From an uncultured Chloroflexia bacterium (GTDB lineage: Bacteria; Chloroflexota; Dehalococcoidia; Dehalococcoidales; UBA2162), in NCBI GenBank assembly GCA_963735055.1, contig CAVTJN010000019.1, positions 329,547-393,546 on the forward strand: a stretch of DNA of 64,000 nucleotides, given 5' to 3'. Made by a program: the position numbers and the translations under genes. The notes under the pieces were generated by a model. It had not been told where the DNA came from, did not search any database, and saw only the letters and a program-made list of their open reading frames with translations. Of the stretch, positions 2 to 18,188 are shown one piece after another (the stretch's first letter is position 1; every line of letters begins with the position of its first letter).

Positions 2-862
2 CGCGTGGTGACGGCCTTGATCGGGCAAGGGCACGTCGTCGCCGTCACCGGGGATGGGGTCAATGACGCTCCTGCCCTGAAGAAAGCCGACATCGGCATC
101 GCCATGGGTATTACCGGCACCGACGTCAGTAAGGAAGCGGCCGCCATGGTCCTCACCGACGATAATTTCGCCTCCATCGTGGCCGCCGTGGAAGAGGGCC
201 GGGGCATCTACGACAACATAAAGAAATACCTCATGTTTCTGCTTTCCTCCAATATCGGTGAAATACTCCTCATGGCCGCGGCCATTCTTCTCGGCCCCGT
301 GATCGGACTGCCCTTCGGCGCCATCCCTCTCATCGCCATTCAGATTCTGTGGGTCAACCTGGCCACTGACGGACTGCCCGCCATTGCCCTGTCCATTGAC
401 CCCCCCGCCCCCGATATCATGAAGCAGAAGCCCCGGCCCCGGGGACAGGGCATCTTCACCAGACCCGTCTTGACCCTCATGGCCGTCGGCGGCCTTTGGT
501 CGTGCATCGTCAACATCGGCATCTTCAAATGGGCCCTGGATTCAGGCCGGCCCATGCTCGAGGCCCAGGCGCTGTGCTTTCTCACCCTCATAATCATCCA
601 GTTCTTCAAAGCCTACAACTTCCGTTCCGACACCCATTCCATATTCAGCATCGGGTTCTTCAAGAACAAATGGCTGAATCTGGCCATCCTGTGGGAGGCC
701 GCCCTGCTGGCCGTAATCGTCTACACCCCCCTTCTTCAGGACTCGTTTCACACCTTCTCCCTGAGCCTGGCCGACTGGCTGATCGTCGTTCTGGCCGCCG
801 GCACCGTCTTTCCCGTCCTTGAGTTGGCGAAGCTGCTCATCCGCAGGCGGTCGAGTCGTTGA
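2..862 (+). CDS. P-type cation-transporting ATPase (type II, PacL/SERCA-like), C-terminal part; 5' end outside window
   Basis: ORF 5..862 has the hinge motif VTGDGVNDAPALKKADIGIAMG followed by several hydrophobic TM segments. The frame is open to the window start. Confidence 0.85.
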   Translation, partial: RVVTALIGQGHVVAVTGDGVNDAPALKKADIGIAMGITGTDVSKEAAAMVLTDDNFASIVAAVEEGRGIYDNIKKYLMFLLSSNIGEILLMAAAILLGPVIGLPFGAIPLIAIQILWVNLATDGLPAIALSIDPPAPDIMKQKPRPRGQGIFTRPVLTLMAVGGLWSCIVNIGIFKWALDSGRPMLEAQALCFLTLIIIQFFKAYNFRSDTHSIFSIGFFKNKWLNLAILWEAALLAVIVYTPLLQDSFHTFSLSLADWLIVVLAAGTVFPVLELAKLLIRRRSSR

Positions 863-9199: not shown

Positions 9200-9276
<77 letters not shown>

Positions 9277-12713: not shown

Positions 12714-13649
12714 ATGCATGAACGCGTGGTTGCCATCGTCGGCCCTACCGGCGTGGGGAAGAGCCGCATGGCTCTCAGTCTGGCGCAGAAGATTCACGGC
12801 GAAATCGTCGGCGCCGACAGCCGCCAGACATATCGCGGCATGGACATCGGGACCGCCAAACCCACTCCCCTGGAGCGGGCACAGGTCCCTCACCACCTCA
12901 TTGACATCGTTGAGCCCGACGGCGACTTCAATCTGGCACTGTACCAGCGTTTGGCCTATCAGACCCTGGCCGACATCCGGCGCCGCCACAAGATCCCGCT
13001 GCTGGTGGGCGGGACGGGGCTTTACGTCTGGGCGGTGGTGGAGGGCTGGGACATACCCGAGATCGCCCCTGACACCGGATTGCGGCGGCAACTGGAGAAG
13101 CGAGCCGCTCTCGGGGAGGCGGATGCTCTCTTTGAAGAACTGGCAAAGATCGATCCCGAGTCAGCGCAGCGAATTGATCCAAGGAATATCCGCCGTGTTA
13201 TTCGCGCGCTTGAAGTCTCGACGACGGCGACGGTCCCTTTCTCCAAACTGCAGCGGAAAACGTCGCCCCCTTTCGAGACCCGGATTATCGGTCTCACCGC
13301 GGCACGGGCCAGCCTGTACCACCGCATCGATGCCCGGGTCGACCGCATGATGACGGAGGGACTGGTCGAAGAAGTCCGGAACCTGGTCAGCAGAGGCTAC
13401 AATTTCGATCTGCCCGCGATGTCGGGCATCGGCTACCGGCAAATCGGGGACTACCTGGCCGGCAGGGCCTCGCTGGAATCGGCCGTCCAGCAGATCAAGT
13501 ACGAAACGCACCGCTTCGTCCGCCGCCAGTACAACTGGTTCCGGCTGTCGGACAAGCGAATCTCCTGGTTCGACATCGAGGACGCCGGCGTGGAGGAGCG
13601 AATTCAGGCGGAGGTGATGGCTTTCCTGAACCCCGCTATTCCAGAATGA
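12714..13649 (+). CDS. miaA: tRNA dimethylallyltransferase
   Basis: P-loop AIVGPTGVGKS, then ..DSRQTYRGMDIGTAKP..HHLID.. Confidence 0.9.
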   Translation: MHERVVAIVGPTGVGKSRMALSLAQKIHGEIVGADSRQTYRGMDIGTAKPTPLERAQVPHHLIDIVEPDGDFNLALYQRLAYQTLADIRRRHKIPLLVGGTGLYVWAVVEGWDIPEIAPDTGLRRQLEKRAALGEADALFEELAKIDPESAQRIDPRNIRRVIRALEVSTTATVPFSKLQRKTSPPFETRIIGLTAARASLYHRIDARVDRMMTEGLVEEVRNLVSRGYNFDLPAMSGIGYRQIGDYLAGRASLESAVQQIKYETHRFVRRQYNWFRLSDKRISWFDIEDAGVEERIQAEVMAFLNPAIPE

Positions 13650-14472
13650 TGTTGTCCAGCAGCCGGGGTCTGCCGATCTTCACTGCCAGGGAGATGACAA
13701 CCGGAGGCTTGACCTCATCCAACTCCTCGAGCGTGTCGGCGTTGGCCAGGCTGATGTAGTCGATCCTCTGGACAAGGGCCTCTTCTTGAATCAACTCCAT
13801 CATTGCCCGTCGGATGCGTTCCGCGTTCCGTTCGCCTTTCAACCACATGTCCCGGGCTTCGTTCAGCGACCGTGACAGCACGGCGGCGGCGCGCCGCTCG
13901 GCGGGGTTGAGATAAGTGTTACGGCTGCTCATGGCCAGCCCGTCGGGCTCGCGCACGGTGGGCACGATCACCACTTCGAGGTTCATGTTGAGATCGGTTA
14001 CCATCCGCCTGATGACAACGCATTGCTGAGCGTCTTTCTGACCGAAGTAGGCCCGGGCCGGCTCGACGATGTTGAAAAGCTTGTTGCACACGGTAGCCAC
14101 ACCACGGAAGTGCCCGGGACGAGAAGCGCCTTCGAGCCTCTCGGTGACCTTTTCCACGTCTACCCAGGTATTGAAATGAGGAGGATACACTTCAGAGGGG
14201 GGCGGTATGAAGACGACATCCGTGCCGACCGTTCCCAACATCGCCACGTCCCTCGGGATATCGCGCGGATAGGATGCGAAATCATCGCTGGGACCGAATT
14301 GGCTCGGGTTGACGAAAATGCTGACCACGGCATGGGGATTTTCCGATTTCGCCCGCCTCACCAGCTCCAGGTGACCTTCGTGCAGATAACCCATGGTCGG
14401 CACCAGGCCCACCGCGCCCTTCATTTCGCGCCGGACCCGTTTCATCTCGGCGATCGATTCAACTACGATCAT
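13636..14472 (-). CDS. panC: Pantoate--beta-alanine ligase
   Basis: ..VPTMGYLHEGHLELVR..FVNPSQF..AYFGQKDAQQ.. Confidence 0.9.
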   Translation of the reverse strand: MIVVESIAEMKRVRREMKGAVGLVPTMGYLHEGHLELVRRAKSENPHAVVSIFVNPSQFGPSDDFASYPRDIPRDVAMLGTVGTDVVFIPPPSEVYPPHFNTWVDVEKVTERLEGASRPGHFRGVATVCNKLFNIVEPARAYFGQKDAQQCVVIRRMVTDLNMNLEVVIVPTVREPDGLAMSSRNTYLNPAERRAAAVLSRSLNEARDMWLKGERNAERIRRAMMELIQEEALVQRIDYISLANADTLEELDEVKPPVVISLAVKIGRPRLLDNIILE

Positions 14473-14504
14473 GGAATCTCACCCCCTTTTCGCGGCCCAC
14501 GAGG

Positions 14505-14538
14505 CCCCAAACGGAAAAGGCACGGCGTGCCGTGCCTT
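14505..14538 (-). terminator. Hairpin plus U-rich tract between panB and panC (partial terminator or processing site?)
   Basis: Minus strand reads AAGGCACG-GCACGC-CGTGCCTT followed by TTCCGTTTGG, inside the 114-nt panB-panC spacer. Confidence 0.3.
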
Positions 14539-14586
14539 AAGGATCGAGGTTGGTATTCATCTCGCCGGTTTCCGGAGAGCCGCCTG

Positions 14587-15414
14587 CTACTTCTTGAGTT
14601 CAGCAAGCAGGCTCTCATCCATCGTGAAGCTGTTCTTCTCGGTGGGGAAAGCCCCAGTCTTTACTTCGCCGTAGTACTCGGTGACCGCCTGCCTCATGAT
14701 CTCGCCAATGCTGGCATATTTCTTGGCCAGCTTGGGCACCCGGTCGGACAGGCCGAAGACATCATGGATGACCAGTACCTGGCCGTCGCAGCCGTCTCCG
14801 GCGCCGATGCCAATTGTCGGAATCGTCAGTCTCCGGGAAATCAGGGTGGCCAGCGGAGTTGGCACCTGCTCCAGGACCACTGAAAAAGCCCCGGCCTCTT
14901 CAAGCGCCAGGGCGTCCTGAAGCAATTGAGATGCCGCCTCGGGAGTCTTCCCCTGGACCCTCCAACCACCCAGCTGATTGACTGATTGCGGGGTCAGTCC
15001 GATGTGTCCCATTACCGGGATCCCGCACTGTACCATCTTCTTCACTTTGTCGGCGACGGTAACGCCGCCCTCCAGTTTCACGCTCTGGCAGCCGGCTTCC
15101 TGGATGAACCGGGCCGCGTTACGCAGGGCATCCTCGATACTGATATGGTAGGTCATGAAGGGCATATCGCCGACAATCAATGCCTTGTTCGTACCACGCA
15201 CCACGGCTTTGGTATGGTGGATCATCACATCCATAGTCACCGGTATCGGAGTCTCGTATCCGAGAACGACCATACCGAGGCTGTCACCGACCAGTATCAG
15301 AGGAACGCCGACCTCATCGACGATCTTGGCTGTGGAGTAGTCGTACGCGGTGAGCATGGCGATCTTCTCGCCCTTCTGCTTCATCTCCTTTATCTGGGCG
15401 ATGTTCACACGCAT
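14587..15414 (-). CDS. panB: 3-methyl-2-oxobutanoate hydroxymethyltransferase
   Basis: ..MLTAYDY..ILVGDSLGMVVLGY..VKLEGG.. Confidence 0.9.
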   Translation of the reverse strand: MRVNIAQIKEMKQKGEKIAMLTAYDYSTAKIVDEVGVPLILVGDSLGMVVLGYETPIPVTMDVMIHHTKAVVRGTNKALIVGDMPFMTYHISIEDALRNAARFIQEAGCQSVKLEGGVTVADKVKKMVQCGIPVMGHIGLTPQSVNQLGGWRVQGKTPEAASQLLQDALALEEAGAFSVVLEQVPTPLATLISRRLTIPTIGIGAGDGCDGQVLVIHDVFGLSDRVPKLAKKYASIGEIMRQAVTEYYGEVKTGAFPTEKNSFTMDESLLAELKK

Positions 15415-15797
15415 TATTGGGCCTCCAGCACCGTCATCAGGCGGTGTCCCCGTTTTGCCTCCACAATAGCATTGTCCGCATTGACGTAGACCAATCTGGG
15501 GGATGCCCGGCGCGCCTCTTCCTCGGGGACCTGGTGATAGCAGAGGATTATTACGATGTCACCTCTGGCCGCAAGCCTGGCGGCCGCTCCGTTGACGCAG
15601 ATCTCGCCCCGCTCGCCTTCGATGGCGTAGGTGGTGAAGCGAGCACCGTTGTTCACGTTCACCACATCAACTTGCTCATAGGGGAGGATATCGGCGGCCT
15701 CCATGAGCTTGCGGTCGATCGTGATACTGCCTTCGTAGTTGATATTAGAGTCGGTTACGCGGGCCCGGTGGATCTTGCTCTTCAACATTACTCGCAT
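15414..15797 (-). CDS. panD: Aspartate 1-decarboxylase
   Basis: ..[25 protein letters not shown].. (the GS processing site is present). The ATG at 15797 sits 6 nt after GGGGGTG. ORF track start 15806 is a GTG. Confidence 0.85.
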
Positions 15798-15802
15798 GGT
15801 GA

Positions 15803-16699
15803 TCACCCCCTACTCGTAGTCGCACCAATTTGCGCGGGAACGGGTTGCCGCAACAAAGCCAACAGCGCGTCGGCGGCAGCTTCGTCGATCTTGCCCTTGG
15901 AGACGGAAATCGGGACCGTCTCCAGTCCGAGTTCACGGTAGATCATCGCCACAGCGGGCGCCGCAGCGTCCAGTGCGACGAGATGCTTGCGCACCGTGCC
16001 GGCATCACCCCGGGCAATCGGCCCGGTAAGACAATCGGGGATGCCCACACTCTCCAGGTTATTCAGAGTCCCCTTGAGCAAAGGCATCAGTGCCCTGACC
16101 GCGTCCGCTCTCGGCACACCAAACGACCGCCACAAATCAGTGGAGAGCTTAACCAGGGTAACCAGATAATTGCAGGCGATCACGGCCGAGGCATGATAGA
16201 GGACTTTGTCACTGGCCTTCAGTTCGATTGAGTAGCAGTTAAGGGCTGCGGCCATTGCCTTGAGAGTCGCCCGCAGCGGTTCTTCAGCTTCGATCGCGAA
16301 GGTAGAGCCGGGGATATTGTCGACCGCCTGTTTGACGCCGGCGAACGTTTGAAGCGGATGAAACGCACCGACATCGGCACCGAGAGCCTTGGCCGGCTGC
16401 AGCACGGCCGTTGAATCGGCTCCACTGCAATGGACCACGCATTGTCCGGACCGCCATTTGACCTGAGCGGCAACTTGGCCGATGGCGCCGTCCGGGGTGG
16501 TGATGAAGACGATATCGGCGGCATCCGCCGCGGCCTGCGCACTTGGCACCGCCTGGCAGCCCGGGACCGCACCGGCGAGTCTCTCGGCAGAGGCAAAAGT
16601 CCGGCTGGCAGTCGCGGACACTATATACCCGCTGCCACTCAGCCTGATCGCCAGCGCCGTACCCACCGTGCCGGCTCCGATGAACCCTACTCTGAGCAC
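15803..16699 (-). CDS. Rossmann-fold NAD(P) oxidoreductase with DUF2520-like C-terminal domain; candidate ketopantoate reductase (PanG-like)
   Basis: Contains [11 protein letters not shown], then ..[27 protein letters not shown].. It is the first gene of the pan operon. GTG start after GAGGTGG. Confidence 0.55.
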
Positions 16700-16717
16700 T
16701 TCGCCACCTCGCTCAAG

Positions 16718-16753
16718 AATAAAAAAGGCCTTCCCGGACGTGCCGAGGAGGCC
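16718..16753 (-). terminator. Intrinsic terminator inside the pan operon leader (attenuator / riboswitch expression platform candidate)
   Basis: Minus strand: GGCCTCCTCGG-CACGT-CCGGGAAGGCC (10 of 11 positions pair) followed by TTTTTTATT. It ends ~10 nt before the RBS of the first pan gene. Confidence 0.6.
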
Positions 16754-16756
16754 TCA

Positions 16757-16771
16757 AATATCATTGATATT
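16757..16771. promoter_or_regulatory. Perfect 15-bp AT-rich palindrome in the pan leader
   Basis: AATATCA-T-TGATATT, immediately 5' of the leader terminator. Conspicuously AT-rich in a GC-rich context. Confidence 0.3.
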
Positions 16772-16883
16772 CTGCCGTCTCGGTCGTCCCCGATCCAAGC
16801 GACTACATATTGTTAAGGATACCCAGCCTGGCGCTCACCGTCCCATTCCTGCGGATCGATGGCCCCTTCGGCTTTCACCTACT

Positions 16884-16912
16884 ATGATATGGCCGGAAAT
16901 TCATTTTGTCAA
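16884..16912 (-). promoter_or_regulatory. Promoter of the pan operon
   Basis: Minus strand: TTGACA (16912-16907), 17 nt, TATCAT (16889-16884). This implies a leader of ~180 nt. Confidence 0.55.
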
Positions 16913-16933
16913 TAGCATCGGGTTCAGTTCCAC

Positions 16934-16962
16934 TTGAATCTGAGCGGCAAAGCGGATAGAAT
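16934..16962 (+). promoter_or_regulatory. Divergent promoter for the FAD-dependent reductase gene
   Basis: TTGAAT (16934-16939), 17 nt, TAGAAT (16957-16962). Confidence 0.45.
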
Positions 16963-17012
16963 TTCGAGACACTCCTTACCAAACGGCACGCTGGAATCAG
17001 GGCAGACTCTCA

Positions 17013-18188
17013 TTGTACGACGTCTTAGTCTTGGGTGGTGGTCCGGTGGGCAGCCAGGCAGCATACAGGCTCGCCGGCATGGGCTACGCCACGGCCGTAG
17101 TTGAACAGAAGACCGACCACTCGGGTCCTGTCTGCTGCACGGGCATCATAAGCGAAGAATGCTTCCGGGCATTTGAGATCATCCCCGGAGTGTCTTTCCG
17201 CCATGTCACGAGCGCCAGCGTCTATTCCCCTTCAGGTATCAAGATACGTCTTGAGCGAGCGGCTTCCCAGGCAGTCGTCGTCGATCGGCCGGCATTCAAC
17301 GCGTTCATGGCCGAACGCGCCCGCAAGCAGGGCGCACGCTACATTTGGGAAACGCGAGCGGTGGCAGTCGAGATAAGCAGGGAAGGGGCAGCAGTCACCG
17401 TGGCATCCGGAGGAACGGAACGACATCTCGAGGCAAGAGCAGTTGTCCTGGCGACCGGGTCCAGCGCATTCCCGACCGAGCCGCTTGGGCTGGGCCAACC
17501 GCGTGATTTCGCCGGCGGCGCACAGGCAGAGGTCGAGACCCGGGGCGCGGAGGAGGTGGAGGTGTATCTGGGACGGAGGTCTGCCCCGGAGCTTTTTGCC
17601 TGGCTGGTGCCGACATCTCCTGGCCGGGCACTGGCCGGCTTGTTGTCCCGGCACGCTCCCGGGCAGCAACTCAGGAGCTTCCTGACCGTCCTCAAGGAAC
17701 GGAACAAGATCCGGCACATTGACGTTCCTTTCACGTCAGCAGCAATCCCGCTAAGAGCGGCTTCCCGGACCTACGCCGACCGGCTGCTCGTCATTGGCAC
17801 CGCTGCCGGGCTGGTGAAACCGCTTACGGGCGGGGGAATCTACTTTGGCCTGCTCTCGGCGGACATGGCGGCCGAGGTCCTTCACCACGCGTTTGACCAC
17901 AACGATCTCTCTCATCGCCAACTGGCCGACTATCAGCGCAAGTGGAAACGTCAGTTGGGACACGAGTTGAGAATAGGCAGCTGGGCACGCAGTATTCTTG
18001 AACGCCAGAGCGACGAACGCGTGGACCGCGTGTTTGACATAATGAATTCCCAAGGTAGGATCACAAGACTGCTCGGCGAAGACGATATCTCCTTCGATTG
18101 GCACGGCAAAGCAGTCCGGCACTTGCTTAGTGATGGTACTTTGGCTAAACTAATTATAGGAATGAAGAAGCCGTTCCCCCGACAATAG
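17013..18188 (+). CDS. FAD-dependent oxidoreductase, geranylgeranyl reductase family
   Basis: DVLVLGGGPVGSQAA dinucleotide-binding motif at the N-terminus; 391 aa; ..GTAAGLVKPLTGGGI.. Confidence 0.75.
   Translation: MYDVLVLGGGPVGSQAAYRLAGMGYATAVVEQKTDHSGPVCCTGIISEECFRAFEIIPGVSFRHVTSASVYSPSGIKIRLERAASQAVVVDRPAFNAFMAERARKQGARYIWETRAVAVEISREGAAVTVASGGTERHLEARAVVLATGSSAFPTEPLGLGQPRDFAGGAQAEVETRGAEEVEVYLGRRSAPELFAWLVPTSPGRALAGLLSRHAPGQQLRSFLTVLKERNKIRHIDVPFTSAAIPLRAASRTYADRLLVIGTAAGLVKPLTGGGIYFGLLSADMAAEVLHHAFDHNDLSHRQLADYQRKWKRQLGHELRIGSWARSILERQSDERVDRVFDIMNSQGRITRLLGEDDISFDWHGKAVRHLLSDGTLAKLIIGMKKPFPRQ

Follow-up and report, generated by a model that had tools for sequence, protein, structure and literature searches.

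Organization of the locus

The window, which is the whole 64-kb stretch of DNA that was analysed, carries a pantothenate operon on its minus strand. The leader described here lies in the 313-bp minus-strand gap between a divergent gene for an FAD-dependent oxidoreductase and the first gene of that operon. The genes and expression signals are the following.

17013-18188, plus strand: divergent FAD-dependent oxidoreductase gene, TTG start
16912-16884, minus strand: sigma-70-type promoter, TTGACA-17-TATCAT, agreeing with the consensus at 11 of 12 positions
16710-16704 and 16699-16697, minus strand: ribosome binding site (RBS) GAGGTGG and GTG start codon of the first gene
13636-16699, minus strand: the whole operon DUF2520-panD-panB-panC, predicted to be regulated by the leader
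15803-16699, minus strand: DUF2520/Rossmann protein, a PanG-like ketopantoate reductase (Pfam)
15414-15806, minus strand: panD (Pfam)
14587-15414, minus strand: panB (Pfam)
13636-14472, minus strand: panC (Pfam)
9203-9276, minus strand: tRNA gene (Rfam, gathering threshold)

A preliminary description of this DNA had proposed a near-consensus minus-strand promoter, a long untranslated leader, the GAGGTGG site with its GTG start and the gene order DUF2520-panD-panB-panC, and each of these was borne out. Two promoter-like sites occur in the leader region where 0.3 would be expected, and the TTGACA hexamer is invariant in the orthologue alignment A1. Among the matches listed, 47 of 61 related leaders carry TTGACn-16..18-TAnnnT, and the promoter ends a median of 6 nt before the first leader hairpin (H1); the RNA would therefore start essentially at the conserved motif. 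Transcription of the window leader probably begins near position 16877, which gives it a length of about 178 nt. On the plus strand, a promoter-like sequence TTGAAT-17-TAGAAT (16934-16962) faces the oxidoreductase gene and stands back-to-back with the promoter of the leader.

The N-terminus of the first gene product can be aligned with those of its orthologues, consistent with the position of the GTG start. NCBIfam returned no name for this DUF2520 protein. According to the literature, the DUF2520 family includes PanG, a ketopantoate reductase defined experimentally in Francisella, together with its Coxiella homologues, and a search anchored on the DUF2520 protein picked up homologues from Coxiella endosymbionts at about 30% identity. 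With a PanG-like protein followed by panD, panB and panC, the operon therefore encodes the full pantothenate route. The 114-nt gap between panB and panC contains a terminator-like element on the minus strand (14517-14538), made up of the GC-rich 9-bp hairpin AAGGCACGGCACGCCGUGCCUU and then UUCCGUUU; it may act as a weak internal terminator or as a stabiliser.

Leaders used for comparison

Five contigs of Dehalococcoidales/Chloroflexi metagenome-assembled genomes were fetched by means of the DUF2520 protein (59-72% identity), and a metagenome scan for the core of the second leader hairpin (H2) gave at least 120 loci. The listed loci, the window and the orthologues make up 126 leaders, which fall into 96 clusters at 80% identity. 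Alignment A2 comprises 49 leaders aligned with MAFFT, and its base pairs were counted by column. H2 is invariant in the metagenome set because the search pattern fixed it, and the test of H2 against the terminator is accordingly one of conserved complementarity, not of covariation. The clusters are phylogenetically related, so that p-values are inflated. In two loci (L091 and L123) the H2-core match lies inside an ORF that reads by translation like phosphoenolpyruvate carboxylase, a coding coincidence.

Relationship to the pan motif

The elements of the leader are listed here in the order of transcription.

16864-16832, minus strand: hairpin H1 of the predicted pan motif, GGC-CAUCG-A(16856)-UC ... 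GA-CGGUG-A(16835)-GCG
16831-16803, minus strand: linker between H1 and H2, 29 nt, variable in sequence and length
16802-16775, minus strand: hairpin H2 of the predicted pan motif, UCG-CUUGG-A(16794)-UCG GGGA CGA-CCGAG-A(16778)-CGG
16783-16743, minus strand: predicted antiterminator, H2 3' arm (plus 1 nt) CCGAG..GGC with terminator 5' arm GCC..CUCGG
16771-16757, minus strand: 15-nt AT-rich palindrome AATATCAATGATATT
16755-16718, minus strand: predicted intrinsic terminator, GAGGCCUCCUCGG-CACGU-CCGGGAAGGCCUU then UUUUUUAUU

The original report describes the pan motif as hairpins, usually two in tandem, each stem with two conserved bulged A residues, located in the 5' UTR of panB/panC/panD operons of three phyla, Chloroflexi among them (Weinberg et al. 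2010, Genome Biol 11:R31, PMC2864571). The window leader has two bulged A residues in each hairpin, a tandem pair joined by a linker, and a position upstream of panD, panB and panC. A full-length match to the Rfam model of pan (RF01749, model positions 1-92) extends over 16864-16771 with 29.5 bits and an E-value of 0.0039 in a 501-nt search, which is below the Rfam gathering score of 36.2 bits; at gathering thresholds the tRNA gene is the sole Rfam match over the window. The preliminary description had raised the pan motif as a possible identity, to be checked against the pan model and all of Rfam. That suggestion is upheld: in an all-Rfam scan of 16600-17100 pan is the sole match at E <= 1, though sub-threshold. 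Other RNA families were set aside, as the same scan at E <= 10 returned pan and a noise-level narK match alone. The latter (17017-17090, minus strand) lies inside the oxidoreductase ORF and was judged noise; it reaches 15.7 bits, where the gathering score is 43.2, and has an E-value of 1.7.

The low score of the window leader is due to features that set it apart from typical pan RNAs, namely an 11-nt H1 loop with a 3-bp extension of the inner helix, a G.G outer pair and a GC-rich linker. Four of the five orthologous leaders score above the gathering score (36.5-42.3 bits), as do 8 of the 20 metagenomic relatives tested. Rfam under-calls this clade, as is evident from the sub-threshold scores of the window, of orthologue L005 and of 12 of the 20 metagenomic relatives. 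A covariance model that drew only on 12 relatives above the threshold, and not on the window sequence, gave one match in the 64 kb, at 16771-16864, with 59.5 bits and an E-value of about 2e-12; neither this model nor the H2 pattern detected any further pan site in the window. The 2010 seed already holds a member of the Chloroflexi type (NZ_AATI01000127.1) with a near-identical H2, a terminator and a DUF2520-like first gene. The assignment to pan thus follows from homology, in the scores of the relatives and the model built from them, and not from the Rfam cut-off. Judged in this way, the leader is a slightly divergent, sub-threshold copy of the known orphan pan motif, and the class itself was already known.

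Conserved hairpins and terminator

Each of the two hairpins has a pseudo-symmetric 3-5-3 architecture, composed of 3 bp, a bulged A, 5 bp, a second bulged A and at least 2 bp. The bulged residues are A16856 and A16835 in H1, whose inner helix is 3 bp longer and capped by GGAA, and A16794 and A16778 in H2. The two bulged A residues and the G-C pairs flanking them are alone conserved in each hairpin; the loops vary in both length and sequence. In the 49 relatives of alignment A2, each of the ten H1 pairs has changed on either side, and pairing is kept in 95% of cells; the terminator stem shows covariation at 10 of its 11 pairs, with pairing in 90.5% of cells. Covariation in aligned leaders of related pan operons, which the preliminary description had put forward as a check, is thus present in both elements. 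None of 500 shuffles reached the observed pair counts, slid partners were paired in 34-54% of cells, and RNAalifold recovered H1, H2 and the terminator unaided. A scan for the H1 architecture found a match in 63 of the 96 clusters among the matches listed, a few of them apparently spurious, and the linker ranges from 17 to 61 nt among the relatives listed. H2 is identical in all five orthologues found through the protein.

The loop of H2 (window positions 16787-16790; A2 columns 106-113) is almost always a GNNA tetraloop in this clade, for example GGGA, GCAA, GAUA or GAAA. Firmicute members of pan have a longer, A-rich H2 loop.

The terminator predicted at 16755-16718 consists of a GC-rich hairpin directly before the U-tract UUUUUUAUU. 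Its 12-bp stem includes one mismatch and closes a 5-nt loop, with a predicted energy of -17.9 kcal/mol; a strict terminator scan missed it because of the 1x1 mismatch in the stem. The terminator ends 7 nt before the RBS, and the distance from H2 to the RBS is 65 nt. No upstream gene on the same strand was found that this terminator could serve. Among the matches listed, a comparable hairpin with a U-run lies 3' of H2 in 115 of the 126 leaders, and the sequence of the terminator 5' arm is conserved (GCCyUCUyGG) where loops and spacers are not. The strong hairpin and U-run that had been pointed out just before the RBS are therefore a conserved part of these leaders.

One close orthologue (L003) is without the terminator. 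Its leader (L003:1204-1325) keeps the pan motif and misses the spacer-and-terminator stretch of about 70 nt, which places the end of H2 about 10 nt from the GTG. The missing segment may reflect a natural deletion or an assembly variant, or else point to translational control.

Several other features of the leader were considered and set aside. The perfect 15-nt palindrome that had drawn attention earlier is present, and it forms a small spacer hairpin nested in the antiterminator in this window alone. A role for it as an operator or conserved element was rejected: such palindromes occur at chance frequency in the window (4 against 5.1 +/- 2.5 in shuffles), this one is not conserved among orthologues, and spacer hairpins are not enriched family-wide among the matches listed (p = 0.15). 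The palindrome is probably incidental. Likewise, the complementarity CGAUCC/GGAUCG noted in the preliminary description exists, but a functional long-range helix was discounted, as it is specific to the window, the orthologous H1 arms read CGACC, and the strands are used in H1 and H2. Attenuation by a leader peptide was also rejected, the only small ORFs having 21 and 25 codons, both without a Shine-Dalgarno (SD) sequence. One of them opens where transcription is predicted to start, and the other runs across the terminator; the ATG of a small ORF is missing in orthologues L002 and L005. Pairing of the H1 3' arm with the H2 5' arm, as a chain model would have it, is weak, with two G.U pairs and no covariation. 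This pairing is possible in about 82% of cells, which is expected anyway because H1 and H2 are homologous, and it remains speculation.

A predicted antiterminator and a proposed switch

The 3' arm of H2, CCGAGACGGC, and the terminator 5' arm, GCCUCCUCGG, are complementary. In the predicted antiterminator 16783-16779 pair with 16747-16743 (5 bp) and 16776-16774 with 16752-16750 (3 bp), separated by a 2x2 internal loop. The CCGAG/CUCGG alternative pairing with the terminator 5' arm that had been read from the window is part of this structure, and it is conserved. In the window itself the duplex has a predicted energy of -13.6 kcal/mol (p = 0.085 against shuffles) and, with its 2x2 internal loop, is weaker than the family norm. 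Across 85 related clusters among the matches listed, the mean energy of the duplex between these two arms is -11.2 kcal/mol, as against -7.1 with shuffled arms and -6.3 with reversed arms (Wilcoxon p about 1e-12, a value inflated by kinship of the clusters). Seven antiterminator pairs could be aligned in the 49 relatives of A2, and they are formed in 93% of cells compared to 51-71% with a slid partner.

The columns of the terminator are constrained in the same pattern. Terminator pairs whose residues are also bound by the antiterminator are almost invariant in A2, whereas the pair that faces the antiterminator mismatch (columns 163:187) varies freely, being UA in 27 leaders and CG in 21. The two competing folds are also close in predicted energy. 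When the window transcript is truncated before the terminator 3' arm, the antiterminator fold has -19.3 and the H2 fold -18.3 kcal/mol, and in truncated transcripts of the family the median gap between the two is 1.1 kcal/mol. An analogous complementarity of 5-8 bp is present in seed members of Bacillus and Caldicellulosiruptor and in one from a metagenome, amounting to 7-8 bp in Bacillus and others; taken singly, each case is marginal. That of Bacillus uses a conserved 3' tail, AGAGGGAU. Over the flanks of the 2010 seed, complementarity between H2 and the terminator is consistent across phyla and individually weak (p 0.03-0.2).

Comparison among the leaders, then, establishes as sequence features both hairpins and the terminator, together with a conserved complementarity that would form the antiterminator and two folds of nearly the same predicted energy. 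The conserved antiterminator between H2 and the terminator appears to be the new part; the available portions of the original paper and its supplement do not discuss it (Weinberg 2010, PMC2864571). The locus adds no new class of RNA; the comparison around it adds an explicit OFF-switch model with named base pairs.

Because the two pairings are conserved and mutually exclusive, the folds are nearly equal in energy, and terminator columns are constrained or free according to their part in the antiterminator, we infer an OFF switch. In our reading a pan-type cis-regulatory RNA probably controls the panG-like/panD/panB/panC operon by transcription attenuation. The earlier suggestion of a riboswitch or attenuator-type leader is thus supported, as regards attenuation, by the pan identity, the conserved terminator and the alternative pairing; a riboswitch in the strict sense, an RNA that itself binds the metabolite, is a possibility taken up below. 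Both the effector and the direction of the switch, off on binding, belong to the inference.

The proposed sequence of events would be as follows. Transcription would begin a few nucleotides upstream of H1, and H1 and H2 would form first. With no effector present, the H2 3' arm would capture the terminator 5' arm, forming the antiterminator, and the polymerase would read into the operon. A trans-acting effector that reports sufficiency of pantothenate or CoA would clamp the bulged hairpins closed; the terminator 5' arm would then be free, the terminator would form 7 nt before the RBS, and the operon would be off.

Such a design has parallels in well-known regulatory systems. In Firmicute-type OFF riboswitches a strand of the sensor takes part in the antiterminator and the alternative folds are near-equal in energy. 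The pan leader resembles these platforms in that a strand of a sensor helix is common to an antiterminator competing with a terminator upstream of the RBS, but its sensor is a simple pair of bulged hairpins, not a multi-helix junction. Proteins also mediate the choice between terminator and antiterminator, as PyrR does on pyr leaders and the CAT dimer of LicT/SacY does on RAT hairpins. Binding of PyrR favours termination, as proposed here for the pan leader. For pan, no conserved regulator gene recurs next to the motif among the at least 120 loci listed. Tandem small hairpins make up the guanidine-II (mini-ykkC) and NAD+-I (nadA motif) riboswitches, which share with pan two similar stem-loops, a variable linker and a position upstream of functionally coherent genes. 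The conserved nucleotides of guanidine-II lie in the loops, whereas those of pan lie beside single-nucleotide bulges in the stems and its loops are free.

Nature of the effector and alternative explanations

With respect to the effector, we lean slightly to a dimeric RNA-binding protein, which we give about an even chance, over a small metabolite, which we hold to be a tentative though serious candidate. The lean to a protein derives from the conserved pairs flanking 1-nt bulges, from the 3-5-3 pseudo-symmetry and from the view of the authors who described the motif; they judged it suggestive of a dimeric protein site (Weinberg 2010, PMC2864571). In the literature searched, no pan effector has been identified since 2010 and no pantothenate or CoA riboswitch was found. 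CoA and pantothenate belong to the small group of universal cofactors for which no RNA sensor is known, and reviews of 2022 list CoA as without any riboswitch and call it a riboswitch 'blind spot'.

It is possible, short of probable, that the leader is a true metabolite riboswitch, whose two bulged hairpins would directly recognize a small molecule from the pantothenate/CoA pathway and act through the same terminator/antiterminator platform. Candidate ligands are pantoate, 4'-phosphopantothenate, 4'-phosphopantetheine, dephospho-CoA or an acyl-CoA. The classic platform logic argues for this, with an aptamer strand common to the antiterminator and near-equal folds, and so do the missing regulator neighbour among the loci listed and a regulon that is narrowly about pantothenate supply. 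Moreover, the tandem hairpins of guanidine-II and NAD+-I were once thought too simple and proved to be riboswitches. Against it stand conserved nucleotides that are paired beside 1-nt bulges, with free loops, unlike most aptamers, the preference of the describing authors for a protein site, and a CoA riboswitch that was still not listed in 2022. A further point against it is that the single-hairpin pan RNA of Geobacter showed no change in in-line probing with 1 mM pantothenate, CoA or beta-alanine (Weinberg 2010 supplement); the tests reported there comprise this one construct and three ligands, and the authors gave explicit caveats on the constructs. If a riboswitch is the true explanation, the tandem, terminator-coupled form of Dehalococcoidia could reveal ligand binding where the single-hairpin Geobacter RNA tested in 2010 failed, since its H2 is invariant and its antiterminator cleanly defined. 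That pan is the missing riboswitch for a metabolite of the pantothenate/CoA pathway nevertheless seems rather unlikely to us.

Two further explanations dispense with attenuation as the main mechanism. Control might be exerted mainly on translation or mRNA stability, the terminator being a constitutive partial stop. The arrangement in L003, where H2 lies about 10 nt from the start codon without a terminator, would suit this, as would the delta-proteobacterial variants and the GC-rich single-hairpin ones near the RBS, some with anti-SD hairpins, and a direct reading of the sequence finds the terminator 5' arm CCUCCUC partly complementary to the RBS GAGGUGG. In the window, however, H2 is 65 nt from the RBS with a strong terminator and U-tract in between, the hairpin and U-run are kept in 115 of 126 relatives among the matches listed, and conservation of the terminator 5' arm is accounted for by antiterminator pairing; we consider this explanation improbable. 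More improbable still, to the point of being hardly credible, is that the terminated transcript of about 160 nt serves as an independent small RNA or that the leader hairpins are unregulated and do not switch. A strong promoter and a strong terminator do bracket a structured RNA here, but among the matches listed the motif is always in the sense orientation and directly upstream of pantothenate-related operons, in three phyla, and conserved mutually exclusive pairing would be unexpected. Attenuation through the antiterminator remains the reading we prefer.

Genes preceded by the motif and motif variants

The first gene after the motif could be named in many of the related leaders, with the following numbers among the matches listed.

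DUF2520 (PanG-like): 43 leaders
Peptidase_S58 (DmpA/BapA-like): 12 leaders
panB: 11 leaders
ECF transporter operon (EcfA-A'-T-S): 10 leaders
panD: 9 leaders
SBP_bac_5 ABC transporter: 3 leaders
PanE: 2 leaders

Among the same matches, the Peptidase_S58 genes often stand in S58-DUF2520-panD-panB operons, and 9 loci have coaX downstream of the motif. B. subtilis has the motif ahead of panB. The genes headed by the motif plausibly supply pantothenate or its precursors, by synthesis and probable uptake. This wider regulon, with the PanG-like reductase, S58 peptidase, ECF and ABC transporters and coaX, narrows the likely signal. The associations with S58, ECF and SBP_bac_5 genes are not mentioned in the available portion of the original report (Weinberg 2010, PMC2864571).

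The H2 core heads S58 operons in L020, L022, L067, L107, L111, L121 and L122, complete ECF operons in L030, L042, L046, L054, L113 and L114, and a peptide-type SBP_bac_5 ABC transporter in L100 and L129. Single-hairpin pan variants were seen directly after the -10 box in L025, L099, L103, L112, L118 and L125, and also in L048, L053, L055 and L066. In these variants a CCCGCCC...GGGCGGG hairpin comes next, then a conserved anti-SD hairpin, CAUCUCACUCGnAGGAGGAGAUAGCCAUG, and then panB. The Bacillus members of the seed have a similar anti-SD hairpin, CAUCUCCUC...GAGGAGGAG, before panB.
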